A stretch of DNA of 54,968 nucleotides from a virus (Duplodnaviria; Caudoviricetes), in IMG/VR virus record IMGVR_UViG_3300020201_000026, positions 1 to 54,968 of that record; one strand, given 5' to 3'. Shown piece by piece: positions 1,025 to 53,600 of the stretch. The notes below the pieces were generated by a model, which saw nothing but the letters and a program-made list of their open reading frames with translations, was not told where the DNA came from and ran no database searches. Made by a program: the position numbers and the translations under genes. Positions within the stretch are counted from its first letter, which is position 1. Each line of letters starts with the position of its first letter.

Positions 1025-3844
1025 TTATCCTAACATTGCCTGACGAAGCATCACTGCTAAATCAGATTCAGACTCTGTTTCGTCTTTTCTGTCTTCAATT
1101 AGTTGGTTAAGCAACCTGACAGCTTGCACGTGAAATACATACATACTCAAAGAGCTATCAAACTCCTTTAACACGTCTTCAAGGGCTTCACAAAGAAGGC
1201 TTTGTTTTGCGGTTAAAGAGCGGTAGTCTATCTCATCAAGATATGCGTTTATCTCACCAATGGAGTGTTCAAACTCTTGGCAATAGTAGAAGTCTAACGC
1301 CATAGTTTTTAAACTCTCCTTTTCTGACTCAGCAATATCCCTTTGGTCAGTCTTTCTCCAGTAAAAGGCATCTTTTTCTTGTGCTATGTACTTATACACA
1401 TCAGCACTTAACAAAGAATTGTACTCCACTGTAAAAGAGTCAATTAGTTCTTCAACAGACAACTTGAAATCTACTTTTACGCAGGCTTTGTAGCTGTTTA
1501 TCACTAATCTTTCTTTTTCTATTTCCTCCTGCTTTTTTTCATTAGCGACATAGTCGTAATACAGCTGAGATAACTCAGTGTGAGACAGAACACCTTGTCC
1601 TTTATAACAATAAAAGACAACAACCCCTCCTAATTCTAAAGGAAGAGTGAGAAAGTTAGACAAAGAACTAACTGCAAGCAATATCCTTTCTGCTGAGTAT
1701 GACACAGAACTACCTTTGTAGCTGTCTGGTAGTATCTCGTTAACAAAGGAGTAGTGCTTTTTAATATCCTCAATAGATTTCTCTAAAGATTCAATTATCA
1801 GCTCTTTTTGTGATTCTACACTGGCAAAAGTAGGCACAGTTTTAATAACTAATACCACTTTATCTTCTCCTAACAATTCAAGTTTGGTATTAACCACTTT
1901 GATTTGGGATTGATAGTTAGGTAAATAGATACTGCTCACTGCTTTTGCGTGAATCTCCTCTGTTGTTAAAGGAGTAGAAATCCTCATTTCAGCGTTGCCC
2001 ATTGCATATACCGTAACAGTTTCACTATCAGCGTTAAACACTCTTTCTTTAGTGAATAAAGAAGGGTCAAGCTTGTAAACAAGCGCAACTACTGCCTCGT
2101 TAAAATACGTAACGTTAGTAAGAAAAGTAGCTCTTCCAATACTTGTTACTGTACCTGTTGTGTAGGAGAAATAACTCCCTTCAGAAGCAGCCGACACTTT
2201 CGTATCAAATGCTACCCTGTATGCTTTACAGCCTTTAGCTGCAACCACAACAACGGAACACAATTGCTCAGTTACTTGCTGAGTGTCTGTCATATACCCT
2301 AATTGGCTTAGAATAATAGACAGCTTTCTGTATCCCTCAAGGGCTTCTTGCTCCGCCATATAAAAAGTCATTGACTCTTTTGCTTGGCGTACTTCTTTGT
2401 TGTTCTTTTTAGCCACGATGCTGTCGTACAACTTTATATTGGCGTAAGAAGTAGACACAAACTTTGAAAAAAACTTGTTAGTTTTATCTTCGTCTGCTTT
2501 TTTGTCTATGACTGTTCCAAATTTAGTGTACGCCTCAATGGCAAGAAACTTTGCAACTTCTTTGGCGATGCCAAGTTCCATTGCATAATAGAGAATTAGA
2601 GCTTGGTTATACTCTAACATCGTCAATAGAGGAGCAATCCTTTTACCTTTTACAGTAAAACTATTGTTGCTTTCTATTACGTCATTTGCACGAAGCTCTT
2701 CAAGAACCTCGTTGTACTCCATTTGGTTATATGGAGTTATCAGATTTTCGTTATCTACACCTTGTGATAAAGTGTTAACAACAAACTCTCTTGCGTCCAA
2801 CAAGTCAATGGCTCTTAATGGATACTGTTGACGAGAATCGTAAGAACCTATAAGAGTGTATTTGTAAGGCATAGAACCTTGTTCAAGTTGCATTCTTCCA
2901 ATACGCCCAGCAGCTTGCGCCACCTCAGCTTTTGAAACGCTGTAAGTAGTCAATTGCTTGACTCCTTTAACGTTTACCATATGTCGTATTTGACCTAAGT
3001 CAATCACAGACTTTATCCATTTAGGATACGTTAAGCCTGTACGACCTATGTTAGTTGCAATGATAACAGCTTGTCCTTCTTTATGCTGGAGATAAGCCAT
3101 ACGGTCTTTACTGTCCATTTCACCGTGCATAAGATACACAGTTACTTTAGATGAAGCCTTAGTCGCATATGCTTCAACAATAGCTTGTACTTCAGCTATC
3201 TCCTTCTTTCCAGGACAGATAACTATGAAGTTGTACCCTTCTTCAAGTCTTGTATTGACAGTTGAAGTTAGGTTTTGAGAAGTTATCACACTCCCAAACA
3301 CAGGCGAGCCTTCTACACTGAAGCTTGTAGTAGTAGCTTCCACTACATTACAGTTTAGATAAGAAGCAAACATTGTACCTTGCACAGTCGCAGACATAAT
3401 CAAGACTTTACAGCCTAATTCTCTTGCTTTGTACAAGTTGATAATAGTGTTAAGCTCTAATTCGTGAGCTTCATCTATTACCACTAAAGTAGATGACATA
3501 TCCTCTTTGCCTAATTTAGACGTGAGGATTCCTTCGGTCATATACACAACAGAAGCATTAGCATTGCTGCTTGTACCTCTTCCTGTGATATGCCCTATCA
3601 TATCGGGTTGTCCACAGCCTTCAATAGCTGTAGCAGAGTTGCTTTCTGCTTGGCTAATGCGTGGCTGCGAGACATACACTTTGCTTATACCCTCTACGGC
3701 AGTCAGCAAGTGCAGTGGCAAGTATATGGTCTTACCTGTCCCTGTAGGACTTGTAAGAACACATCTGCCAACAGTGTTGAGCTGAGAGGCAATGCTCTCG
3801 GCATAACGAGCTATAGGCAGCTCTTTAAACCATTTTTTCTCCAT
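1025..3844 (-). CDS. DEAH/RHA-family (HrpA/HrpB-like) SF2 helicase with long C-terminal extension
   Basis: Motifs in order: I SPTGTGKT, Ia SQPRI, Ib TEGIL, II DEAHE, III SAT, IV PGKKEI, V ATNIGRTGLT, VI QAAGRIGR. Confidence 0.9.
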   Translation of the reverse strand: MEKKWFKELPIARYAESIASQLNTVGRCVLTSPTGTGKTIYLPLHLLTAVEGISKVYVSQPRISQAESNSATAIEGCGQPDMIGHITGRGTSSNANASVVYMTEGILTSKLGKEDMSSTLVVIDEAHELELNTIINLYKARELGCKVLIMSATVQGTMFASYLNCNVVEATTTSFSVEGSPVFGSVITSQNLTSTVNTRLEEGYNFIVICPGKKEIAEVQAIVEAYATKASSKVTVYLMHGEMDSKDRMAYLQHKEGQAVIIATNIGRTGLTYPKWIKSVIDLGQIRHMVNVKGVKQLTTYSVSKAEVAQAAGRIGRMQLEQGSMPYKYTLIGSYDSRQQYPLRAIDLLDAREFVVNTLSQGVDNENLITPYNQMEYNEVLEELRANDVIESNNSFTVKGKRIAPLLTMLEYNQALILYYAMELGIAKEVAKFLAIEAYTKFGTVIDKKADEDKTNKFFSKFVSTSYANIKLYDSIVAKKNNKEVRQAKESMTFYMAEQEALEGYRKLSIILSQLGYMTDTQQVTEQLCSVVVVAAKGCKAYRVAFDTKVSAASEGSYFSYTTGTVTSIGRATFLTNVTYFNEAVVALVYKLDPSLFTKERVFNADSETVTVYAMGNAEMRISTPLTTEEIHAKAVSSIYLPNYQSQIKVVNTKLELLGEDKVVLVIKTVPTFASVESQKELIIESLEKSIEDIKKHYSFVNEILPDSYKGSSVSYSAERILLAVSSLSNFLTLPLELGGVVVFYCYKGQGVLSHTELSQLYYDYVANEKKQEEIEKERLVINSYKACVKVDFKLSVEELIDSFTVEYNSLLSADVYKYIAQEKDAFYWRKTDQRDIAESEKESLKTMALDFYYCQEFEHSIGEINAYLDEIDYRSLTAKQSLLCEALEDVLKEFDSSLSMYVFHVQAVRLLNQLIEDRKDETESESDLAVMLRQAMLG

Positions 3845-3867
3845 TGTTTTATGTTTTTAAAGGTTTG

Positions 3868-3919
3868 TGAATAAGATTGGATTTGAACCAATTCTCCATA
3901 GGAGCAACCTTGCTTATTC
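3868..3919 (-). ncRNA. 52-nt tRNA-like element lacking a D-stem and anticodon loop
   Basis: Minus strand: acceptor GAAUAAG/CUUAUUC plus discriminator A; T-arm AUUGG-UUCAAAU-CCAAU; linker CAAGGUUG containing GG; mini hairpin CUCC-UAU-GGAG. Confidence 0.7.
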
Positions 3920-3924
3920 AATAA

Positions 3925-3953
3925 AAGTAGGGGCTACAAGAAGCAACCCCTTA
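3925..3953 (-). terminator. post-stop hairpin (terminator or processing site)
   Basis: Minus strand GGGGUUGC-UUCUU-GUAGCCCC followed by UACUUUU, just after the stop of 3957-4379. A similar hairpin lies at ~993-1020. Confidence 0.45.
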
Positions 3954-3956
3954 TAA

Positions 3957-4379
3957 CTAAAACATCTCTCTCCACTGTACGTGTTGAAAGACCGTTGTTT
4001 TGGTAACACTCCCGTCGGGGTTTACCAGCTCAACGGACTTTCTTTCGGTGGTTGACTGAATGCACACAAGAGAGGTATGTGCGTTTTTGTAGTGGGCATA
4101 CAAGTTAGCCCACATTGTCAGGGTAGGCTCACCTGTGCAATAAAAGTGAGTTGCCTCTTCCATTATTGCTTCTGAGACTATCCTCAGAGCAAGCAACTGT
4201 ATTTCTTCTAAAGTTGCTGTTGCTGAAATGGCTGACATTTGAGCTTGCAACTCAGGGTCTACCTCTTTCAAGGTAACAATTGAGTCTTCGTGGTCTTTGC
4301 CAAATTGCGAGTTAAATCCTTCAACTTGAGACTCTGTCAAAACGTGGCTAAACGCGACAAATAACTTCTTGTTTTTCAT
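3957..4379 (-). CDS. csx20: Csx20-like CARF-related protein, putative ring nuclease / anti-CRISPR
   Basis: N-terminal LFVAFSHVLTESQ, central G-E-P-T-L-T, and C-terminal STTERKSVE...DGSVTKTTVFQHVQWR match my recollection of the Csx20 pattern (FSHxLTxxQ ... STTxR ... K.s.F.HvrFR). Confidence 0.75.
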   Translation of the reverse strand: MKNKKLFVAFSHVLTESQVEGFNSQFGKDHEDSIVTLKEVDPELQAQMSAISATATLEEIQLLALRIVSEAIMEEATHFYCTGEPTLTMWANLYAHYKNAHTSLVCIQSTTERKSVELVNPDGSVTKTTVFQHVQWREMF

Positions 4380-4510
4380 ACTTTTATTTTTAAAGGTTTT
4401 AGCAACGATGCACCTTTATCCATTTGTTTCGCACACCCGTCCTGTGTGCTACATCTACCTCGTAGATGAGTTTATAAAGGGTTAGATACAACCTTTATAA
4501 ACTGACTTTG

Positions 4511-4542
4511 CAAAGTTAGTGAAATAACTTCGCATTTGCAAA
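4511..4542 (-). promoter_or_regulatory. Bacteroidota housekeeping-sigma promoter driving csx20-like and helicase genes
   Basis: Minus strand TTTG (4542-4539), 20-nt spacer, TAACTTTG (4518-4511): the -33/-7 consensus TTTG-N19-21-TAnnTTTG. It sits just downstream of a terminator. Confidence 0.75.
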
Positions 4543-4549
4543 CAAATTA

Positions 4550-4580
4550 AAAAGCCTTCCAATTAAATCGGAAGGCTTTT
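4550..4580. terminator. intrinsic terminator (bidirectional-looking)
   Basis: AAAAGCCTTCC-N9-GGAAGGCTTTT perfect inverted repeat 3 nt after the stop of 4584-4886. A related hairpin lies at 9710-9737. Confidence 0.75.
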
Positions 4581-4583
4581 GGG

Positions 4584-4886
4584 TTAAAATGTTGCTAAGT
4601 AAGCTCTCCTTGCCACAGATTCATTCAAGTTTAACCATACGAGGTACTCCTCGTTGGTCATGTCTTGAATGAAGATATATTTTATGCAACTTCTTGCCCC
4701 ACGAGAGCCATAATACGCTTCTTTTACTTCACTTGTGTCTTGTAGCCAATGGCTAAGGGGAGTCTCCTTAGATGTGGAGCAATTAAGCTCCAATAAATCA
4801 CTGAGATACAATTTACCTATTGACCCACTTCTGCGAATTGGGTAATTTGTTTTTTTTGTTATTTGCCCTTTTTTTGACTTTGTCAT
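4584..4886 (-). CDS. hypothetical protein (100 aa)
   Basis: ORF; N-terminus shared with the truncated gene at 1-32. Confidence 0.75.
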   Translation of the reverse strand: MTKSKKGQITKKTNYPIRRSGSIGKLYLSDLLELNCSTSKETPLSHWLQDTSEVKEAYYGSRGARSCIKYIFIQDMTNEEYLVWLNLNESVARRAYLATF

Positions 4887-4974: not shown

Positions 4975-5487
4975 TTATTTTGTGAGGAGAAAATGACTGT
5001 TTGCTTGTGTTTTGTATAACACAAAACAGTCATTTGCCGCTAAGGCTGTCCCTGAATTGCTCCCTTTCTCCTCAATAAAATATTGGCGAGTTTCAAAGAA
5101 CACAAGGGTATCTTCTCCTTCTTTTTGAAAGACTTGGAGCATTTGTCCTTTGTCAGTCCCTACTTGGTCTTCCCAATCCTTTCTACAAGATAAGCCCTCG
5201 TAGATATGTTGGTTTATGTGATGAAACTCACACGCCATTGGCAGTGTGATTTCTTTTCTGTTTACCAAAAATGTCTCTGGATTGATTTCAAAGGACACCT
5301 TGTATTCGTATGGACTACCCTCCGAGTAGTCGTCCTTTGCAGAAATCTCATACGGCTCTGAGTTACTCGCAAACCCAATAACTAGTTCGTCGTGATAGCT
5401 TACACTTGCCATTAAGTGCTTGCCGCCCTCAATGAGGGTCTCGCCTGTTATGGCGTTTTTTATTAAAATTTCCGTGAAGTTTGACAT
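4975..5487 (-). CDS. hypothetical acidic protein (170 aa)
   Basis: ORF; no motif recognised. Confidence 0.75.
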   Translation of the reverse strand: MSNFTEILIKNAITGETLIEGGKHLMASVSYHDELVIGFASNSEPYEISAKDDYSEGSPYEYKVSFEINPETFLVNRKEITLPMACEFHHINQHIYEGLSCRKDWEDQVGTDKGQMLQVFQKEGEDTLVFFETRQYFIEEKGSNSGTALAANDCFVLYKTQANSHFLLTK

Positions 5488-5497
5488 TGTTTTTGGA

Positions 5498-5545
5498 TTT
5501 AGGGTTTAGGGTTTAGGGTTTAGGGTTTAGGGTTTAGGGTTTAGG
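5498..5545 (+). repeat. (TTTAGGG)6 + TTTAGG tandem repeat
   Basis: Read directly; lies 10 nt upstream of the ATG of the minus-strand gene 4975-5487. Confidence 0.95.
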
Positions 5546-11708: not shown

Positions 11709-11781
11709 GTCCTTATAGCTTAACTGGAAAAGCGTTACCCTTCTAAGGTAAGGAGTACAAGTTCAAATCTTGTTAGGGACA
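11709..11781 (+). tRNA. tRNA-Arg(TCT)
   Basis: Acceptor GTCCTTA/TAGGGAC+A; D-arm GCTT/AAGC; anticodon arm TTACC-CTTCTAA-GGTAA; T-arm ACAAG-TTCAAAT-CTTGT; CCA not encoded. Confidence 0.92.
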
Positions 11782-11796
11782 CTAATAGATTATAAT

Positions 11797-42129: not shown

Positions 42130-44664
42130 ATGGCTAATTGTAGCATAAAACCACAAGTCCAAGAAAGTATTAAAAGAGCAACACACGTAAAAAACATCTT
42201 AGAAGGACAGATAGCGTCAGACAGTGTAGATTTTACAAACCTGCTTATCGCTTTTGCCGCTTACGGGTTTCCCTCATTAGAAGGTCGCGTGAAGATAGAG
42301 TCAAAATACGCAAGTTCTTTTTACTTACCTGGAATGATAGACGATATACAAGTCTCAACAGGGGCAACTTTTGCAAAGGTTAAAGATTTCCTCAATAGCG
42401 AAGACCCAAGAGCGATAAAACTCCTTGAAAAATCAGATGCTTTTTACGACCACCTTAAAGCTTTCAACAACAAGGACGACATAGAGTTGTTTGAGAAGAT
42501 AAAGAACTGGATAGCTTTAAACCGCACAGGGGTTACAACCATTGTCCCTGTTGATTATGCAGACGCAGATATCATAGTGCAGCAACCACTTGATTTTACA
42601 AGCAGAGTGCAAATGATGAGCCACATCATAGACACTATTGAAGACTCTACTTTAAGAGCTAAGGCAGCAGTGTTCCTTGACTATATAAGCACAGGGAACA
42701 TTAATGCCCTAATAGACAAGGAACAAGCCACAGGCACTGACTTTGTAAGTAAACTGTCTAATGCTGTGAAGAACCAAACAAGAGTCCCCGTACAAGTGAG
42801 AACAGAGCTTGTTATGGAAGGAGGCATTACAGTTGCTAAACACAAGGTGTATATGGGAGATGAGCTAATAGGAACATTACAAGACCCTGCTCTGTTTCAA
42901 CACGCTAACACCAATGAACTCAAACAGACACACGACAAGGCTGTAGAGATGTGGGGACTTGAACACGTAGAAAAAAGATTAGCTGCGTTTGGCAATGCTA
43001 TTGCTGAATTACACCGAATCAAAACAGTCAGCTTGGAATTAGTCGGCTTAGGCAAAGGTAACTTCACACACAACAAAAAGAATACTTTTTTAACAGGTAT
43101 CACATTGTCAAGTCTTCAAACAGACGAATACAAAAGCAATTTGCCTGCTAACCTTGAAATAGGAAAAAAAGTACTAATAGACTGGTCTAAGTGGCGAATG
43201 ATAGCTGGAATAAAGATGTCCCAAAAAGAACGAAAAGAGCTATCTGGATTTGTTGAAAAAATAGGGGGCATAACTGAGTTAATGAACGCGACAGAAACTA
43301 CAGTACAAGATGTAGACATTGCTCTTTTAAAAAAGTACCAGCAGTACTACGAAGAAAACAAATCATACCTAAAGCCCTTTGTGGTTTATTCTTTTACAGG
43401 GCAGGACTTAGAACCCCCTACTATTACTCCTAACCAGTTAGTTTCTCAGTACTACGAAAACTTGTTGGAGTTTATGGATAAAAGAGGGCGGATAATGTTA
43501 GACACTCCGTCTTTTACTTTTTCCGAGCTAATGAAAAAGTTTAGCACGAACTCCCCTATTAAACAGTATATTGACGAGTTGCAAGAAAGCGATAAGGAAG
43601 TAGATAAAAACGTGAACAGAGCCAAGTTAGGCTTTGCGTTTGTTTCTTCAGCAAGCACCCACAAGACATTAGAGACAATGCAATCACTGGTAACCAGTAA
43701 CCGTATAAAGGTTTTCAATACTGACAAAGACGGGGTACATAGAAACTCTTTTGCAGTAGCTATGACAGCAGACGTAAATGGCGATTCTTCAAGCCCAAAG
43801 TCAATCTTGGAAATGCTTAAGGAAACAATAAAAGAAGGTAACTTTGACAGTAAACTTGGTCATTCATCAATTGGAGGAATCCTTAGTTCAGACGGTGCTT
43901 TTAGTCTAAAACAGGACGATGAGATATTAACCCATCTTTTTTCTTTTCTACCGCTGGTAAAAGTAGGTAAAAAATACAAACACGCTTTAGACTATTTGTT
44001 TCAAGAACTTGCTGATTTCAATGAAGACTATAAGAAGTTTTCTAATGAAACACTCAAAGGGGGCAAAAACATAACGGATTATTTGTTCAGTAAAAGGGCA
44101 TCTCCTGCAAACATAATCAACAGAATGGTCGTTATGAAAGTAGGGGGCAAAGAAACAAGCAACCCTATCTATGACGAGCAAGGGGTGTTTGTTACAGTAG
44201 CCAGAAGGATAGGAACAAAGGCAGAGGAAATATTTGAGATAGAAAAGGCTTTAAAACGGAACAATAAAGACGTTGAAATGAGGTATCAAGCTAATGCTCT
44301 TTTACAAAAGGACAGTGGCAAAGCGGCTATAAAAAACCAAAACAGTGTAGGGGGCTTTGCTATTGTGGAAAGTGCCAAAATGGCTAAGTTAGGAATAGAG
44401 TACACTGTTCCGTCAATCCCTACTGAACCAAACATTTTATTAAGCGTTAAAGAGAGTAACCCTGTGGCGGCTGAAAGAACTACAATGGAAACTTTTCAAA
44501 ACATAGTAGCCCACAAAGAGGTGTCTTCTACAATAAAAAAAGCAGTACAAGTATATATAGATATAAACGACACATCTCCTAAAGCTATTGCAGACGTTGA
44601 CGAACTTCTTTTAGAGGAGTTTGAAGACAGAGACCAAATCCCCCCACTTTGTAACGTTACATAA
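42130..44664 (+). CDS. large virion protein adjacent to the RNA polymerase
   Basis: 844 aa, TAATG-coupled to the RNAP gene; no motif recognised. Confidence 0.6.
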   Translation: MANCSIKPQVQESIKRATHVKNILEGQIASDSVDFTNLLIAFAAYGFPSLEGRVKIESKYASSFYLPGMIDDIQVSTGATFAKVKDFLNSEDPRAIKLLEKSDAFYDHLKAFNNKDDIELFEKIKNWIALNRTGVTTIVPVDYADADIIVQQPLDFTSRVQMMSHIIDTIEDSTLRAKAAVFLDYISTGNINALIDKEQATGTDFVSKLSNAVKNQTRVPVQVRTELVMEGGITVAKHKVYMGDELIGTLQDPALFQHANTNELKQTHDKAVEMWGLEHVEKRLAAFGNAIAELHRIKTVSLELVGLGKGNFTHNKKNTFLTGITLSSLQTDEYKSNLPANLEIGKKVLIDWSKWRMIAGIKMSQKERKELSGFVEKIGGITELMNATETTVQDVDIALLKKYQQYYEENKSYLKPFVVYSFTGQDLEPPTITPNQLVSQYYENLLEFMDKRGRIMLDTPSFTFSELMKKFSTNSPIKQYIDELQESDKEVDKNVNRAKLGFAFVSSASTHKTLETMQSLVTSNRIKVFNTDKDGVHRNSFAVAMTADVNGDSSSPKSILEMLKETIKEGNFDSKLGHSSIGGILSSDGAFSLKQDDEILTHLFSFLPLVKVGKKYKHALDYLFQELADFNEDYKKFSNETLKGGKNITDYLFSKRASPANIINRMVVMKVGGKETSNPIYDEQGVFVTVARRIGTKAEEIFEIEKALKRNNKDVEMRYQANALLQKDSGKAAIKNQNSVGGFAIVESAKMAKLGIEYTVPSIPTEPNILLSVKESNPVAAERTTMETFQNIVAHKEVSSTIKKAVQVYIDINDTSPKAIADVDELLLEEFEDRDQIPPLCNVT

Positions 44665-47600
44665 TGAGTAAAATATCCTTTAACAACTGCAGCACCACTG
44701 CTCAAAAAATGGAGTTTTTAGAACAAGAAGGCAAAGCAACAAATACTCAGAACAGGGCAGTAATGCAAGAATACGTTGCTAAATACCACCCTGTAACGGT
44801 GTTGAAAACTACAGAGGCATATAAAAGCACTGTTACTGACGACCCTACAAATGCCCTTTTGTATTTTCCTAAAACAGATAACCCTGTTATAGAAGGAAAA
44901 GGACTGTCCATATACGAAGATGAAAATGGACTGTATATGTATGGTTATTCTAAAGAGATTGCAGACGCTAATGAGGCAGTTAAAAAAGACCCTGAAAAGG
45001 TTTATTTTAGCAACCTCCTAATGGAATCAGACATACTTACAGAAGGAGTAGTAAAAGAGATTAAAGAACAGTTCGTCCCTTTAAAAATAGGGGAAGAAGT
45101 AGACAAGAGACCTGTTAGCGAAGTAGTATATGAGATATCCGAAAAAGAACTAAACAACTATACCCAAACTGAAATATCTGGTTTTATACAACGCTTTAGA
45201 ACAGAAGTGTTTGACAGTGTTTTCAGATACAAAATAGGAAAATGGGAAGAGTTATACCGACTCAAAAAAGAAATCATAGACAAAGCCAAAGAAGGAATAA
45301 ATGACGATACAAAAAGCACACACTATTTTGTGTTTATGTCTAAGTACTTTGACATATTCTTAGAAAACGAGTTCAAAGATGTGTTCACAGTAGATAGAGA
45401 GAAGCAGGATTACAAAATAGCAGTTACAATAGAAGAAACCGAAACAGAAATAGACGAAGACGAAGAAGGAGACCACGAGTATTCAAAAAACCAACTGTTT
45501 GTTGAGAGCAATAAACCACTAAAAGTAACTGGTTTTATGAAGATACTCTTTGGTGCTTTGAAAGGGACAGACGGCAAAAGGTACACTTACCCTAACTATG
45601 TCATCGCTTTATCCGAACTACAAGCTACTACCCTAAAAGAGTTTAGAGAGAAGGTAGATGCCTCGCATAGCCCTGAAATAAAAATCATTAAAGAGTACCT
45701 GTACGGACTTAAAGGGATAATAGCGTCTTCTACAACAACACCAAACCCTCTAATAAAAGATGCCTTCTCTCCTATCGCCTCTAATATAGAAACAGCCCTG
45801 CAACAAATAGCAACTTCTAACAAGCCACAAATACACGCCAACATAATAAAGAAAGACAAAACAGAACAAGGCTTAGAGGTACTCTCTGTGTTTAGAACAC
45901 AAGGGCAAAAAGAAAGACTAAACTCTATTGTAAGTATTGTAAATGACAAAGACGTGCTTGCCCTTTTAAGAGCGCATACTGGGCTAAAGAAAAAGGCAGA
46001 AGACACTACAAAGACTGCTGAAGAACAAGCGGTAGCAAAAGAGCTATACAAAGAATCTATTGTCAATCTATCAAAAGTGTTAGGTATAATAAACAGCCCT
46101 GACGCAACAGTGTTGATAAATGAAATATCAGCTAAAGCAAGTAGTTCAAAAGATGACAACCCACAGAGGTTTAGCAGAAGCATCTCACAAGACAGCGACC
46201 TCATAACACTTATACAACAAGGTGAGGCTTTGCAAGCTAACAATACACTGACAGTTAGTGTAGACGGCAAGCAGGTATCTGTCTTACAGAGAAGCAATCA
46301 GCTAAACACATTGCCTGCTGTTTCAACAGAGTATGGAAAAACAGACACCTTCTCAGTAGGCACAGTTGTAGAAACAAACAGGTTCAAAGACGGCGACTTA
46401 GCAAGAGGGGTAGTCAGAATAGACAATACCGCATATCTACAGTCAGGGTACGTTTTAAACGGGTTCAAAATATCGTATGCTGGGTTCACTGATTTAGAAA
46501 TGCTGAAGACAGCGTTAGAGATGTTTAACAAAGGAAGAAACATTGCCCAAACTTCCTTTTTAATACAGACCATAACACAATCTGACCAATCAACTCCTGT
46601 TGCTACTCAAATTAGTTTTGGCTCAAGATTCTTTGAAAATGTGTCTTTAAACTTTAAAGATGAAAACGGAAAACCAATAGCGTTTGACAGTAGCAACAAT
46701 GCTCACTGGATAAAAGTCCTTAACCAACGCACTTTCAAAAACGAGTTAAACTATTGGGGACACACATTGCGTAACATGTTTGCCCACATAGGATTACCCC
46801 CATACATAACTCTATCTGAAATGGTAGAAGAGCTAAGTAAAGAAACGGCTATCCCAGAAGGAATATCTGTCAATCAACTCCAAGCCAGATTAGGTAGAAA
46901 CTACATAAGTGTTTCTAAAGACGGAAAAACATTTAGTCTTAACCCCGACTTAAAAAAATACCTCAACGCTCTTGACACACAAGAAGGGTTTACTTCTGAG
47001 TTAGACAAGATGTGGGAGGAAACCCTGTTAGTAATCAAAGACAGGTATGCCGCTGGTGTTTTTAGTGCCGATGAAACTGACCAGTTAAAACTAATGCACT
47101 ATCTACACGCTTATACAGACCGCGTGATTAACCCATTGCTGGTAGGCGATATGTTCTCCTATAAAGGCAACAACGTGTTTAAGAAGGTGGTAGACAGGTT
47201 TAAGAGGAGCAAGCAGTCAGGAGGCATAGGGTTAGCTGAAACAGCTTTCGGATTAGGAGAAACAGTTAGCACAATTGCCCTCACCTCCTTTTCAAGCAGC
47301 AAGTTGTTCAAAAACGATTTGCCTGATAGCAACACTGACACACGGATACATGATGTTTTTGGCAACGAGGTAAAAGACTTCAAGGCAGTAGACGGACAGT
47401 CTTTTATGTCCCCTTTACAAGCACGATTAATGAGAGAGTCATTCGGTGGGGACTTGCAAGACTACTTCAAGAACGGGCTTGACACTAAGACACTGATAAC
47501 AGGAATGCTGGGCAACCACACAATCAATATAAAAGACTCAACCCTGACTATCTCCCCAAACATTTACCGCATATCAACGCCTGTGCAGAAGGCAATATAC

Positions 47601-50600
47601 AGACTAATGTATAGCCGAACATACGCAACAGACTTAACCGATATACAATCCTCTATTGACTTTGTTGTAGACAAAGTAATAAAAGACCATGACAAAAGAC
47701 AAGGGCTTAAAACGCACCTTTCAGAAAACCCAACCCACAACAACGCTTGGGAGTTATTGCGTAGCATCAACATAGGCTTAGGAAACAATAACACGAGCAA
47801 TGAAATACTACAGGAGTCAGAAGACTTGCTGTATTACCTCACTATTGTCTTTTATCTTCAAGGTGGCAAATACAGCGACATCAAAGAGAAGTTTTTCAGC
47901 AGTGTTTCTAACATAGAAAACATTAAAGCCAACAACGGCATAGAGCTAAAGCCAATAGACGACTCTTTTGTATTTGAAGACGGCAATATTGCTATAAACA
48001 ATGCGACATTTGACGACTATCAGTATTCTCAAATACCAACTAAGAACATAAAGATACAGTTAAATGCCAATCACGACATAGCGCACTCTGCTATAACCCT
48101 AATGACACAAGCGGTAAATGTGATGGGTATTCAAGGGAGAGTAGAAAAGGGCAAGAAGATGAAGGAAATAATCAAACGCCTTACAGACACAATAGTAGTG
48201 GACATACCGCTACTCAAAGACATACCTGAAGAAGAGCTAAACGAAGAGTTAACAAAAATACTGTTACAAACTATTGAGGATAAAGACAACCTCATGCAGA
48301 AGAATGAGATATTAGCATCAGAAGACGGTAGCATAGTTTTTCTGCCATACTACTCCAATCTTTTAAGCAACAAGCTAAACACATATATAAACAAAGCAAT
48401 TAAGCCTAAGATAAAAGGGGACTTGTTTGTGCTTAGACAAGGCACTAATATGATACAGGTTTATGACTGGCAAGTTGCTACAACAGGGGAAACACAGTCT
48501 GGGCTATATGACGAGTACCAAAGTGCAATGTCAAAAGGACACGTGATAGTAGGAAAACCTCGTACATTGAAAAACGACGGCATCTTATACAAAGGGAAAG
48601 ACATTAGATTCCCTAACAAATACAACGAAGAAGAAAAAGACACCATAACAGAAAGAGCATCTGAGATATTACAAGGGGTAGCCTCAAAGACAATAGACGA
48701 ACAAGTGTGGTTAGACTTTATAGACGAAAACAGCAGTGTTTTTACTGTAAGACCGTTTGAAGTAGTTTTACCAAACAACTACAGGAAGGAACTTCCATTT
48801 GTGCAACAGCTCGGATTAAACGCTTCACAAGCTGAAATAAAGCAGTGGTATGATAAAGCAGGCAAAGAAGAAGACAACACGGAACTCGCTCATAAAAAGT
48901 ATTTAGAACTGCAATCTATAAAAGAAGTTATAGTAAACAGGATACCTACAACAGGTCTTCACTCTTCTGGGTACTCTAAAATAGTAGGCTTCCACAATGA
49001 CAACTCCAACACTATCTTTATACCAGACGGCATAATGTATATACAAGGCTCGGATTTGGATATTGACAAAGGAGTAACTGTTTTACGCGACCTTAAAACA
49101 AAAGACAAAACAGGCAACGATAAACAAAGCATAAAAGAAGCTAACAGCATATTAGACACCTTTATAGATGTGTTGTCTAAACCTCGTAGCTACAACGAGG
49201 CACACACTCCTGTAACAACCAACGAGATGGACGAGGTTAAGACAGACCTAATGGAGGAATTGTCAGATGAAGACAAAAGGTTTATGAACTTTAACCCGTA
49301 CAGAACCTTTATGGATATGATAGCTGGCAACTGGCTAAACGGTGGAGGCAAGACACAAGTAGGGGTATATGCTAACTCTCAAAAAGTATATAACAACGTG
49401 TTTTATGTTTGCAGCACTCTAATTGAAGAGGCATATTTCGCAGCAAAAAGCGTTTCTTTTTATGGACAATCTGCCGAGTGGATAAGAACAGAGGGAAGAA
49501 AATGGGTACTTGCAAACCACTCTGACGCAAAAATAAAACAAGTATTTAATTTGTTTCCTGCTATTACATTTCAAAGCCCTATATTAGTAGAAGCAACAGA
49601 CGGAGGCAAGGCAAACACAATAGGCAATATCTTTCAACCACGCAGTAAAAATCAAGTTTGGGCAAGTCAGTCAGGGGCAAGTAACTCCGCAATGGACAAT
49701 GCAAAAGACCCTAAGTTAGCAATAATAGGTAGCACGTCAGTAACCTCTCCCCTAATAGGAGCGGCTATGATGCTTGGAGGAGAAGACAGCTCTCCTATTC
49801 ACTATTCGTTTTTAAAGTTTTTTGCTGACCCTATTACCAAAGCTATTGTCAAGAACAAAGGGCAAGCCACTGATAAAATGACAGCTGAGTTTGAAAAAGA
49901 CCCAGCCTCTAAAGGGCTTGTTGCCAAGTACTTAAAGGACTACAAGGCTTTAGAAAAGTGGGCGGAGTTTTCTAACGGGCTTGCTAAACTGTTAAAGATA
50001 AATCAGGGCGCACCGTTTCAAACAGTAGACCTCTTGATATTTCAAGACGACTATGATACAGCAATGCAGGCTAAAGACGGCAGAATAAAAATAGTAATGG
50101 ACAACTTACCAGAGTTTTCTAACTATTTTAAAGTAATGAATAGTAACACAAAGTCAAAGTCCAAGCTGTTCAAAGATGTAGCTTTGATAATGGAGTATTT
50201 TAGAACAGATAAAAACATAATAGCCTCTCAAAAAACAAATACTGATGACGAGGCTGAAACAATAAACGTCAACAAGTCAGCAAGGACAAGAGACCATTAC
50301 AAAAGCATATCAAAAGCAGTGTCGTATTTGCTTTTAGCATCAAGCAGAGTAAACATAGCCATTGATTACAATGGAAAAAAGGAAGTCTTTGAAATAAATA
50401 GCAAAGAAGTTTTGGACTATCAAGGAAACACAGTAGGGTCAAAGGCACTTGAAGACTTTGGCAGAAGGTTTCCTAAAATGATAAAATGGTATTTAACCAC
50501 AAACTCATCGTTATATCCTACCTTATACGACAAAGTCAAATTAGACGAGGACGTAATAGGCAAGGACGAAACAGTAGCCAAAGCAGAGATAAAGTACTCA

Positions 50601-53600
50601 AGCACATTAGACTACAAGACACAGTTAGCTCTTCAAGAGGAGTTTCAAAAGATGCCTCTTGAGTGGCAAGACGCATTGTATATGTACTCTGCTATGAAAG
50701 ACGGCGAGTCTTTTGGCAAACACACCTTCACTTCTATTTTCGGGGGCAGCGTGCAACGTCAAAGAACTATAGACGCTATACGCAGATTTGACATTCGCAA
50801 AGTTCCTGACGACTACATGATGGACGCAATAAGAAAGATAAGCAAAGGAGGGTTTCGGCTTGTGTTTAACACTCAGCCAGCGGTAAACGCAAGTGTTGTC
50901 AGCATAGACTCCTCTCTTTCAAAAAACGAAATGGCAACAACAGAAGCCAAAACAAAGATGAAAGGGCTTGTAGGAGCTTTGTTTACAAAACTGTTTGACT
51001 TCCTAAACGCAAAAGGAGTGGTAGTCCATTCTGGAAACAGTGAAACGTTAAAAGCCGTCTTTATAGCAAAGGGGGGGACGGAAGCAATGTACAATAACTA
51101 CGCCTCTTCTGCAAAAGGGTTTACTTTTAAAAATGAAATTTATATAAACCCTTTTGAAGATAGCGAAAATGTGCTTTTAACAAGAGCGCACGAGTACGCC
51201 CACATATTTTTACAAATGCTAAAGCACGGAGGCAAAGAAGCTAATGCCAGCTATGTCAAGCTATTAGAACAAGTGAAAGAGGCAAGAGGGGAGTTCAAAG
51301 AGTCAATAGACAAGGTCAATGCGTTGTATGAAGGGGAGTTAGAAGAAACCTCAGAAGACTATTGGGAAGAGGTTCTGGTTCAAGAGTTAGAAAGAATAGC
51401 CAAACTTGAAATTGAGAAGAAGCCTGTTGAAATAACCCCTTCTATACAAGACGCAAGAAAGTCAATATGGCAAGCCATAAGAGCCTTTTTCACGTTTGAC
51501 TTTAGCTTCAACACGGTTAAGGCAAACAGAAAAGGGGTAAGTGCAGAAGAAACCCTTCTTTCTATTGTGAAGTCGTTACACAGATACATAGGCGAAAGCA
51601 CAAAGGAAACTTCTCTGAGAGAGCAATACCCGTTAAAAAGCCTGACCAAGACGGAAACAGAAAAGGTTCGCCAAAGCAAACAAGACACAGAACGCCCTAT
51701 TGGTAGGTTTACTAATCAAGACACTCTTACTCCTAACTATGACTATGTTCTTTTAAGAGAGAGGTACATGAAAGACCTAAACCCAAAACTCAACGCGGCA
51801 CTGATAAAAAAATTAGAAGCAAACAAAACTCCTGAGAGCATTAGGATAATCTTAGAAAACGCAGGACTGATATCTTCTGCTCCTACTGTGTTAGCTCTCT
51901 CTTTGTTTGATGCTCAAAACCTAAAAGAAAAAGACCAGCACAGGGTTAATAGAATATTCCAACATTCTTCTAAGCTACAAGTTGAAAGAAGAGAAATACG
52001 CGAAAGCCCTGACCCAAGATTTAAGGACGTGTTGTATGCTGTTAAAACAGTAAACGGCGTAGAATACATAGACTTGATAGGGTGTTTGTCTGTTGTACCT
52101 TTAACTAAGACGCACGGTTCTTTGACTAAGTTTAGTTCATTCACCAGCTTCTTTCAAAACAACATAAGAGATGCAAAGATGTTAGAGCTTGCTATCTTTG
52201 CCTTGTACTTAAAGACCAAGTATCCAAAAGCTGTGTTTGGAACTATGAAGGTAGCCCAAATTGCAAACAACTTGGACAAAGCGGAAGACGTGCATATAAA
52301 AGATGCCAATCAAGTGATACGTGAGTTCCAGAGAATGGGCAAAGACAACAAGGACAAGTACACAGCAGACTTCTTAGCCACTTTAAAAGACAAAGACTTA
52401 ATAGAAGCTATTCAGAGTATAGACTTGGTGGCTTCCAACTACCTTGAAATATACAAGCAGGAGTTTGCTGCAATGGGGGCAAACTTAGAAAAGACAGACG
52501 ACAAAGTTGCCTTTGTTAGAAAACGCAAGTCGGAAATAAGAAACACGACTGTTGGATTTTCAACAAACGAGGAGTACATTTTATTGTCGCGACTTGAATC
52601 AGAGCTTATCGGCTTAGACATGCAAGGCAACAAGGTGATTGACAAGATAAGTCGCTGGCTTAAGTCCTCTTCTGATTTTACAAACGAGATAGTGCAGTAT
52701 GTTCAGAACTTGACTAAGAAGGCTTTTGACAATATAGCGAAAGAGTATTGGAGCGGATTTAGAAAAGTGTCTGATTTGAAAACAGCAGCATTGATTGTGG
52801 CTCTTAGAAAAGCCTTGCCCGAGTTGCAGTACGGAACAATCAAAGGCTACCGTGAGTACTACAAGCACTTGTGGGAGACGGATACTAATGGAATAAAAAC
52901 AGGCAGATTGATAAACCCTGTAACCTCTCCTACTGTCAATCCCTCGTTGTGGAGTAGCAAGTGGAGTCATTTGCTAAAAGACAAAGACATTATAGGCTAC
53001 ATTGAATGGTACAAGGACACTTTGGCAGAATACAAAACAAAGATGTACCAAAGAGAAGAAGGCATAAACAGGTCTCCTATAAGCCTACTTGGGGACGAGT
53101 ACTTTATACCTTTGGTCAATGCCAAATGGTCGCAGCAGCTGTTCCAAAACGGAAAGATAGTAAAAGCTTTTAACGAAGTTACAGCTGTAATAAACGACTA
53201 TGATAGAATTTCAGGGAAGCAGTTGCTCACGGACAACTTAGACAAAGACTTATACAATCACTTTGTTTCTCAGTCTTTAAGCAAAGACATTTACTTTAAC
53301 AGGATAGGGCTACAGCGATTAGGGGACAACACCTATGCAGTACAAGAGGGCGGCAAGGTCAAGAACGAAAGTACAGAGATACACTTGGAGAACTTGTTGA
53401 ACTTGTTCGTTATGACAGAAATGAAGCAGTCCCATTTGAAGGAAGTCGCAGAAGTCTATGACACTGTCCTGACTATCTTAAAAGCAGAAAACAACCCAGA
53501 CCTTGACTACTCTATAAGATTCTTTACAGACCAGTACCAGAGGGTTATTCTGAACCATAAGAACTTAGACAACGGGTTGTTTGATAAAATAACCTCTGCT

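Follow-up and report, generated by a model that had tools for sequence, protein, structure and literature searches.

RNAs of the mascRNA and MEN-beta type (Rfam family RF01684), which form the 3′ ends of eukaryotic nuclear long non-coding RNAs (lncRNAs), are small, combine an acceptor stem and a T-arm with a shrunken anticodon arm, and are freed from a longer transcript by RNase P and RNase Z before CCA is added. They are named among RNase P substrates in PMC4919913. In plant mitochondria, the t-elements described by Forner et al. (2007; PMC1920247) lie at the 5′ and 3′ boundaries of mRNAs and guide the cleavage by RNase P and RNase Z through which these ends arise; as described there, they combine an acceptor-like stem and a T-arm bearing the motif GGTTCRANYCC, the rest of the cloverleaf being non-canonical or missing, are organellar, usually measure ~70 nt with remnants of all arms, and have mapped ends. 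Here we describe a tRNA reduction of the t-element or mascRNA kind in a phage: a 52-nt element in a 54,968-nt stretch of Caudoviricetes DNA from microbial-mat metagenomes (IMG/VR record IMGVR_UViG_3300020201_000026, hereafter the window, which has an estimated completeness of 33%), located between a gene for a Csx20-like protein and a gene for a DEAH-type helicase. The principle of stripping a tRNA down is already known from plant mitochondria and mammalian lncRNAs; in contrast to the t-elements, however, this example is phage-borne, is only 52 nt long, is known from its sequence alone and is flanked by a terminator on one side and a promoter-like motif on the other. Our preferred reading, held tentatively and rated just short of probable, is that a tRNA gene has been reduced to its processing half and serves in cis as a cleavage site for RNase P and a 3′-end nuclease. 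Full-text literature searches, which did not cover supplementary lists, returned no description of tRNA-like genes consisting of acceptor and T-arm only in phages.

The original prediction was of a tRNA mimic without an anticodon, with a perfect 7-bp acceptor stem, a discriminator A, a 5-bp T-stem with the loop UUCAAAU, a GG-containing linker and a 4-bp hairpin with a 3-nt loop, and all of these features are present. The element is read on the minus strand, as are all of the genes around it, and runs from 3919 to 3868 as GAAUAAG-CAAGGUUG-CUCC-UAU-GGAG-A-AUUGG-UUCAAAU-CCAAU-CUUAUUC-A. The minimum free energy (MFE) and centroid structures obtained with RNAfold (-11.2 kcal/mol) both coincide with the proposed fold. 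As in canonical tRNAs, all seven pairs of the acceptor stem are Watson-Crick and the discriminator is unpaired, and the T-arm consists of a 5-bp stem and a 7-nt loop with G53, U54, U55, C56, R57, A58 and C61 in place. The D-arm, a 3-4 bp stem and loop in tRNAs, is replaced by the unpaired 8-nt linker CAAGGUUG, and in place of an anticodon arm with a 7-nt loop there is a 4-bp stem closed by UAU; because this loop has only 3 nt, the element is unable to decode. Like the t-elements, it carries a GGTTCRANYCC-type motif (GGUUCAAAUCC) on 12 stacked base pairs (7+5) with no intervening base on the 3′ side, and it occupies an mRNA boundary, 37 nt past the stop codon of the Csx20-like open reading frame (ORF) and, as had been stated, 23 nt ahead of the helicase ATG (discriminator at 3868, ATG at 3844). 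The residue N(-1) is U and the pair G1-C72 is present.

The folding energy on its own is unremarkable (z -1.42; 14/200 shuffles fold equally well), which lends something to the notion that these are chance hairpins in AT-rich intergenic DNA. We scanned the window for a G-C-closed 5-bp stem around TTCRANY (G53 to C61) whose abutting strand pairs perfectly with 7 nt located 2-75 nt upstream. On the two strands together the T-arm motif occurs three times, compared with a mean of 0.13 in 300 dinucleotide shuffles, and the T-arm with an abutting perfect 7-bp Watson-Crick stem occurs at one site, that of the element, and in 0/300 shuffles. The tRNA family model RF00005 matches precisely 3868-3919 on the minus strand in an end-to-end alignment over model positions 1-71, with 21.7 bits (E 0.0013), a score that falls below the 29-bit cut-off and hence short of a canonical tRNA; the only other RF00005 candidate in the window is a true tRNA-Arg. 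Taken together with the identity of the 3′ 25 nt to a real tRNA, described below, these results effectively refute a chance origin, to which we attach next to no probability. It had been anticipated that ARAGORN would miss the element, and its one call in the window is indeed tRNA-Arg(tct) at 11709-11782. The Rfam scan of the whole window at the gathering threshold likewise returned this tRNA-Arg and nothing else, while a scan of 3500-4400 at E<=10 gave CAESAR and bxd_6 alone, both spurious and sub-threshold, with no match to RF01684.

Other reduced or non-decoding relatives of tRNA fit less well. Canonical phage tRNAs and their pseudogenes share the acceptor stem, T-arm and discriminator, and a relative of the phage has a tRNA-Met in the same slot (see below), but the element differs from them in lacking the D-stem and the 7-nt anticodon loop, in its sub-cut-off RF00005 score and in being invisible to ARAGORN. 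The tRNA-like domain of tmRNA also combines an acceptor stem and T-arm with a D-loop analogue and no anticodon; in tmRNA, however, a tag ORF and pseudoknots separate the two halves, whereas those of the element are just 20 nt apart, and ARAGORN reports no tmRNA, so this assignment was rejected. The module of bacterial Y RNA (YrlA), as described in PMC4201824, is a non-decoding tRNA mimic that is found in phages too, but it requires a Ro60-binding stem and an rsr/TROVE partner; it was dismissed, as neither the window (33% complete) nor the 96%-complete genome of the relative contains TROVE (PF05731), and there is no Rfam match. In the arm-less mitochondrial tRNAs of nematodes, an example of extreme size reduction given in PMC4919913, the anticodon arm is kept and the D and/or T arms are lost, which is the reverse of the situation here.

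Evidence for tRNA ancestry comes from the last 25 nt of the element (T-arm, 3′ acceptor strand and A), which are shared with one further contig of IMG/VR, that of a complete 193-kb phage (L002). There they form, with 25/25 nt identical, the 3′ end of a 91-nt tRNA-like gene (L002 851-941, minus strand) that is wedged between tRNA-Ala, which it abuts, and tRNA-Leu within a 33-tRNA cluster, and that has a 3-bp D-arm (presumably of the Leu type), an anticodon loop of 8 nt (given as 'acac' by ARAGORN) and a variable arm with poor pairing. The neighbouring tRNA-Leu(tag) (L002 772-848, minus strand) is just 77 nt long and has no long variable arm. The 5′ acceptor strands are one base apart (GGAUAAG in L002, GAAUAAG in the element), and pair 2-71 is G.U in the L002 homologue (G2.U71) and A-U in the element (A2-U71). 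The L002 phage has no helicase homologue and is for this reason taken to be otherwise unrelated to the phage of the window. A distant blastn search against GenBank phages gave no match. Although the T-arm 18-mer is widespread, being present at no fewer than 118 IMG/VR loci, the identity extends over 8 nt of acceptor strand beyond it, and common tRNA ancestry of the element and the L002 tRNA is therefore a reasonable reading; the best reading of its origin is descent from a class-II, Leu-like phage tRNA family. The earlier description of a tRNA mimic without an anticodon thus holds on both counts, given the 3′ end of a real phage tRNA and a loop that cannot decode.

The middle 20 nt of the element have no significant similarity to the interior of the L002 tRNA (local score 10 against a shuffle mean of 10.9), as might be expected under an alternative that we rate as a real, if somewhat improbable, possibility: the element may be a neutral relic of a class-II tRNA gene that suffered internal deletion(s) of the D-stem/anticodon region, is unselected and not yet decayed, and undergoes any cleavage by RNase P or RNase Z only incidentally. 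This alternative differs from the preferred reading only by denying selection. Two derivations can be envisaged. If the hairpin and the single A that follows it represent class-II variable-arm geometry, a single deletion of ~39 nt would be needed; if the hairpin instead derives from the former anticodon stem, the gene would have had to undergo several separate deletions, which looks like directed reduction and argues against a relic. The arrangement G-CUCC...GGAG-A also flanks the 8-nt loop of a tRNA-like gene in the relative described below, a match that is suggestive only. Decay also fits poorly with what was retained, since 12/12 stem pairs are Watson-Crick, every conserved T-loop position is intact and pair 2-71 is A-U where the L002 homologue has G.U. 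Moreover, phage genomes generally shed useless DNA. If the element is a relic, it is ordinary and documents no more than a tRNA gene decaying at a conserved location.

That such a slot exists is indicated by comparison with the sole distinct relative, a related phage. Among 5.8 billion clustered proteins, the helicase has two close homologues, with 63% and 34% identity. The more distant one (P0003) is encoded on a 10.4-kb contig and the closer one on a 244.7-kb contig (G002, helicase locus L003); tblastn of the helicase against GenBank phages gave only ~25% identical HrpA/HrpB matches. In the search for related loci, the helicase alone retrieved none, whereas an alignment of three sequences used as the query retrieved G002. 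A canonical tRNA-Met(cat) ends 26 nt ahead of the helicase ATG in G002; this tRNA and the gene upstream of it are unrelated in sequence to their counterparts in the window. A tRNA-family slot before the helicase is common to the two genomes, and because G002 has only three RF00005 matches in 244.7 kb, this positional coincidence is unlikely to be due to chance (~1% by a rough estimate). The helicase itself differs in length, with 939 aa in the window and 656 aa in G002 (L003 2998-4968), and the C-terminal ~317 aa of the window protein have no counterpart within the 8 kb of L003.

G002 also carries two non-canonical tRNA-like genes. The first, at L003 2001-2121 (plus strand, 29.4 bits), has 62 nt where the tRNA model skips 15 anticodon-arm positions, and the second, at L124 282-391 (minus strand, 43.3 bits), has 52 nt where the model skips 13. 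In both of these the acceptor, D and T arms are intact, neither is called by ARAGORN, and each is set tightly between ORFs; one of the two has a 4-bp stem with an 8-nt loop and a long hairpin. A comparison of a tRNA-like element of G002 with RF01684 gave 27.2 bits, below the cut-off of 42.5. In this clade, three of the five tRNA-family genes are thus non-canonical, and all five elements in the two genomes end 14-33 nt ahead of the ATG of a same-strand ORF, a spacing at which tRNA-type processing necessarily cuts the mRNAs. Close to the tRNA-Met and one tRNA-like gene, 1.1 kb downstream of the helicase, G002 additionally encodes a PolyA_pol/CCA-adding-family protein (L003 6069-7397, plus strand; E 3.3e-27); the window covers 1 kb downstream of its own helicase.

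In the preferred reading, the element has kept the 12-bp acceptor/T-stem stack, the canonical T-loop, the GG linker and the discriminator A and would have lost the D-stem and the anticodon loop. What RNase P, RNase Z and CCA-adding enzymes recognise is the 12-bp stack together with the canonical T-loop, U(-1), the pair G1-C72 and A73, and minihelices suffice as substrates. RNase P is described as binding the T-stem-loop/acceptor-stem stack and measuring from the elbow (PMC4919913). The cutting mechanism that we infer would begin with transcripts that read through the terminator of the Csx20-like gene and so include the element. RNase P would cut 5′ of G3919 and an RNase Z-type tRNA 3′-end nuclease would cut after A3868, parting the upstream mRNA, on which the terminator hairpin would remain, from the mRNA of the helicase, left with a leader of 23 nt, and freeing an RNA of ~52 nt that could be extended by a CCA-adding enzyme. 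The element would in this way insulate and cut read-through transcripts at the cassette boundary and would be tolerated or kept for that; it is unusable in translation, and selection, if any, would act on processing competence alone. If it is maintained for processing or as a small RNA, the phage reuses the part of a tRNA that is read by RNase P, RNase Z and CCA-adding enzymes.

The transcriptional setting complicates this picture. Genes of the minus-strand block (~1-10 kb) are preceded by cassettes consisting of a hairpin with a TTTTATT tail, a AACCTTTTAAAC-like sequence, ~10 A-rich nt and the ATG, an architecture found at the starts 962, 5982, 6680, 7360 and 9021 and in part at 517, 4379 and 4886. 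The core AAACCUUUAAAAA in the spacer before the helicase belongs to this recurring module, TTTTATTAACCTTTTAAAC. No AACCTTTTAAAC-like module was found upstream of the plus-strand genes, which form a block of large genes, and since that block lacks the motif, the motif is likely to be a class-specific promoter, positioned immediately behind each terminator, rather than a ribosome-binding signal; AAACCTTTAAAAA would accordingly be promoter-like and is a candidate promoter. Cassettes of this terminator/promoter-like type resemble the promoter/stem-loop cassettes of T4-type phages. A promoter called at 3871-3843 by a sigma-70 scan was disregarded, as transcription from it would start inside the ORF. 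At the helicase, the order is terminator (3951-3929, with its tail extending to 3920), element and then CAAACCTTTAAAAAC, and taking the element out of the sequence restores a near-canonical terminator-TTTTATT/AACCTTTAAA module. The element therefore looks like an insertion between the terminator and the promoter-like core, and it would be transcribed only through read-through of the terminator. In the MFE structure of the 116-nt context (z -2.39), the terminator hairpin and the element fold as neighbours.

This placement is the strongest argument against an important role of the element in maturation of the helicase mRNA and favours a relic. With a terminator abutting its 5′ end and a promoter-like motif preceding the ATG, the element may lie outside both main transcription units, and the helicase mRNA may not need processing. 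Further observations, in addition to the unremarkable folding energy, weigh on the same side. Position 8 is C instead of the near-universal U8, and there is no D-stem; in the context fold, U(-1) is able to pair with A73, and RNase P cleavage might be shifted or weakened as a result. The 14-33-nt spacing before ORFs is expected of any intergenic tRNA in a compact phage genome. The relative G002 carries a full tRNA in the slot, not a mini; the reduced form is confined to one narrow lineage, again as a relic might be. The sequencing runs listed with this stretch include no RNA run. The proposal that the element is a host-RNase punctuation signal maturing the helicase mRNA thus survives in part: the tRNA-Met of G002, at a distance of 26 nt, and the uniform 14-33-nt placement of the five elements speak for it, but the abutting terminator and the promoter-like motif speak against it. 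We place the function of the element between cis processing site and relic.

Sequence conservation decides little between the two. A 21-mer search recovered two metagenome contigs with the same arrangement (L004 and L005, with overall identities to the window of 89% and 84%), in both of which the element is identical at 52/52 positions. In a three-way alignment, almost all divergence falls inside the body of the Csx20-like ORF, while identity at the helicase start reaches ~98-99%, only 1-2 changes fall in the 112-nt intergenic region and 4385-4550 is near-identical. Because the flanking intergenic regions and the helicase start are ~98-100% identical anyway, the identity of the element has no statistical power. 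The strong divergence of the Csx20-like ORF between such close lineages, with near-identical flanks on both sides, gives it the look of a swapped or fast-evolving counter-defence cassette. Contigs from aquatic and glacier metagenomes (X6/X9) are available as 151-nt pieces, two of which reach the element and none of which covers 3890-3957; they include 10 nt (aquatic, to 3877) and 22 nt (glacier, to 3889) of its 3′ part. In these contigs, 5 substitutions and a 2-nt insertion map to 3826-3853, with no located difference inside the element, although 1 of the 6 differences per contig has no assigned position, and this pattern may be called weakly suggestive at best. That the element is unchanged in lineages from several habitats counts against a relic, as a weak test. 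In IMG/VR, an acceptor-free pattern of hairpin and T-arm gave 0 matches, and as no copy bears a different acceptor stem, covariation cannot be demonstrated.

Truncated tRNA pieces are common in phage DNA, which again is in keeping with a relic. Among the matches listed, the T-arm 18-mer occurs 121 times in IMG/VR loci, and at 53 of these sites ARAGORN calls no tRNA; two of these 53 are the element described here, and many are without any 5′ acceptor strand. Minis composed of acceptor and T-arm would naturally result from internal deletions that both begin and end within the stretch between positions 8 and 48. We searched for such minis in 994,333 bases from 120 loci among the matches listed, excluding L001, L004 and L005, and required a linker of <=30 nt and <=1 G.U pair, leaving aside anything that overlapped an ARAGORN call; matches that proved to be alternative pairings of real tRNAs, one further match among them, were dropped. 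Ten distinct stand-alone sequences were obtained in 0.99 Mb, none of them reported by ARAGORN, and 0 in each of 10 shuffles; as the loci are enriched for tRNA clusters, this rate is not genome-wide. Minis of this kind therefore recur as unannotated products or by-products of the tRNA genes of phages, and their invisibility to ARAGORN exposes an annotation gap. The mini of the window is unusual mainly as a stand-alone copy, 7.8 kb from the only tRNA and before an RNA helicase gene. RNAalifold on three unrelated minis misaligned the acceptor strands. The minis in L030, L064, L075, L094, L008, L021, L105, L114 and L122 have linkers of 4-27 nt; that in L094 ends 20 nt before an ORF ATG, and those in L030 and L064 have the common acceptor GTCAGAT and different T-stems.

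The occurrence of a reduced tRNA next to a putative counter-defence gene also raises the idea of action in trans, to which we give a low probability. The excised minihelix, with CCA added, could be a tRNA-like small RNA that acts as a sponge or decoy for host factors recognising the acceptor/T-arm, such as the accessory machinery of type III CRISPR systems or toxins directed at the acceptor stem or the CCA at the 3′ end. The element lies in an early-type cassette block and adjoins the hypervariable Csx20-like ORF, a probable anti-type-III ring nuclease, and the neighbourhood in the relative combines two tRNA(-like) genes with a CCA-adding-family gene. Defences acting on tRNA tails or acceptor stems are described (Cas12a3, MenT3, FaRel2), and a precedent is offered by the anti-CRISPR AcrIIIA1, reported to act in complex with fragmented tRNAs/tmRNA (PMC11662646). 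Against this, the RNA is a predicted one, the upstream terminator would limit its dose, no partner protein was identified, and the IMG/VR pattern search revealed no conservation outside one lineage. The original prediction had named anticodon nucleases as possible targets; the part that such nucleases read is missing from the element, for which reason this version of the decoy is mechanistically weak and, we consider, implausible, and the decoy idea as a whole is speculative. A broader version, equally unlikely in our view, is that non-decoding tRNA 'top halves' make up a functional class of RNA that acts in trans and is deliberately retained by phages of this clade and of others, in which case the 52-nt RNA and the Csx20-like ring nuclease might form a two-part counter-defence cassette.

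A role at the DNA level, as an attP-like tRNA 3′ fragment, a recombination site or a boundary for swapping of the Csx20 cassette, would suit the variable Csx20-like ORF bounded on both sides by near-identical intergenic DNA and the insertion-like way in which the element breaks an otherwise canonical terminator-TTTTATT/AACCTTTAAA module. We regard it as very unlikely. An attP-type fragment would be identical to the 3′ end of a host tRNA and accompanied by a phage integrase, but a search of 185,579 species, each represented by a single genome, yielded no bacterial tRNA that shares this 3′ end, and tyrosine integrase (PF00589) is absent from the window and from the 96%-complete G002. The 21-mer occurs in only one of these species genomes, at a site on an Omnitrophota contig that lacks a T-stem and is not a tRNA, and was taken as a chance match. 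Furthermore, an att core leaves the complementary 5′ acceptor strand unexplained.

Table 1 Coordinates of the element and of the features around it in the window
Feature	Position	Strand	Details and evidence
Reduced tRNA-like element, 52 nt	3868..3919	-	Sequence, fold, shuffles, RF00005
Acceptor 5′ strand GAAUAAG	3919-3913	-	
Linker CAAGGUUG, 8 nt, unpaired, contains GG	3912-3905	-	
Hairpin CUCC-UAU-GGAG, 4 bp / 3-nt loop	3904-3894	-	
Single A	3893	-	
T-arm	3892-3876	-	Stem 3892-3888, loop UUCAAAU 3887-3881, stem 3880-3876
Acceptor 3′ strand CUUAUUC	3875-3869	-	
Discriminator A (unpaired)	3868	-	
Intrinsic-terminator-like hairpin, 9 pairs, 5 G-C, 5-nt loop	3951-3929	-	Terminator scan, context fold
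Terminator tail ACUUUUAUU	3928-3920	-	Whole terminator 3920..3951; after Csx20-like ORF, abuts G1 of the element
Spacer to helicase ATG, 23 nt	3845..3867	-	ATG at 3844-3842
Core AAACCUUUAAAAA	3866-3854	-	Within spacer; identical copy upstream of Csx20-like ORF
DEAH/RHA-type (HrpA/HrpB-like) helicase ORF, 939 aa	1025..3844	-	Pfam DEAD and Helicase_C
Csx20-like ORF, 140 aa	3957..4379	-	PADLOC Csx20, E 3.8e-11, profile positions 2-125 of 128

The two neighbouring genes had been named correctly. The downstream ORF contains DEAD and Helicase_C domains, its more distant homologues are named HrpA, HrpB and DHX15, and its start codon is supported by an alignment in which M1 and W5 are invariant in the helicase and its two relatives. 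The upstream ORF matches the PADLOC Csx20 profile over its full length, and a Pfam search with it gave no match. Csx20 is described as a cA4 ring nuclease (bioRxiv 10.1101/2024.09.24.614671), and the ORF is thus a probable viral cA4 ring nuclease. Upstream of it, the 206-nt intergenic region 4380-4585 (minus strand) folds with -69.9 kcal/mol (z -7.57; 0/200 shuffles equal) into a terminator and, after it, four hairpins enclosed by a stem of 8 bp; the stretch from ~4400 to 4500 is identical in L004 and L005, no Rfam family scores above threshold, and the region is a candidate structured leader or small RNA. Directly upstream of the ORF 4975-5487 (minus strand), positions 5498-5545 hold 6.9 perfect tandem copies of TTTAGGG (plus strand; CCCTAAA on the coding strand), a unit identical to that of plant-type telomere repeats. 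At the far end of the window, 44664-54956 (plus strand) is a single 3430-aa ORF that reaches almost to the contig end.

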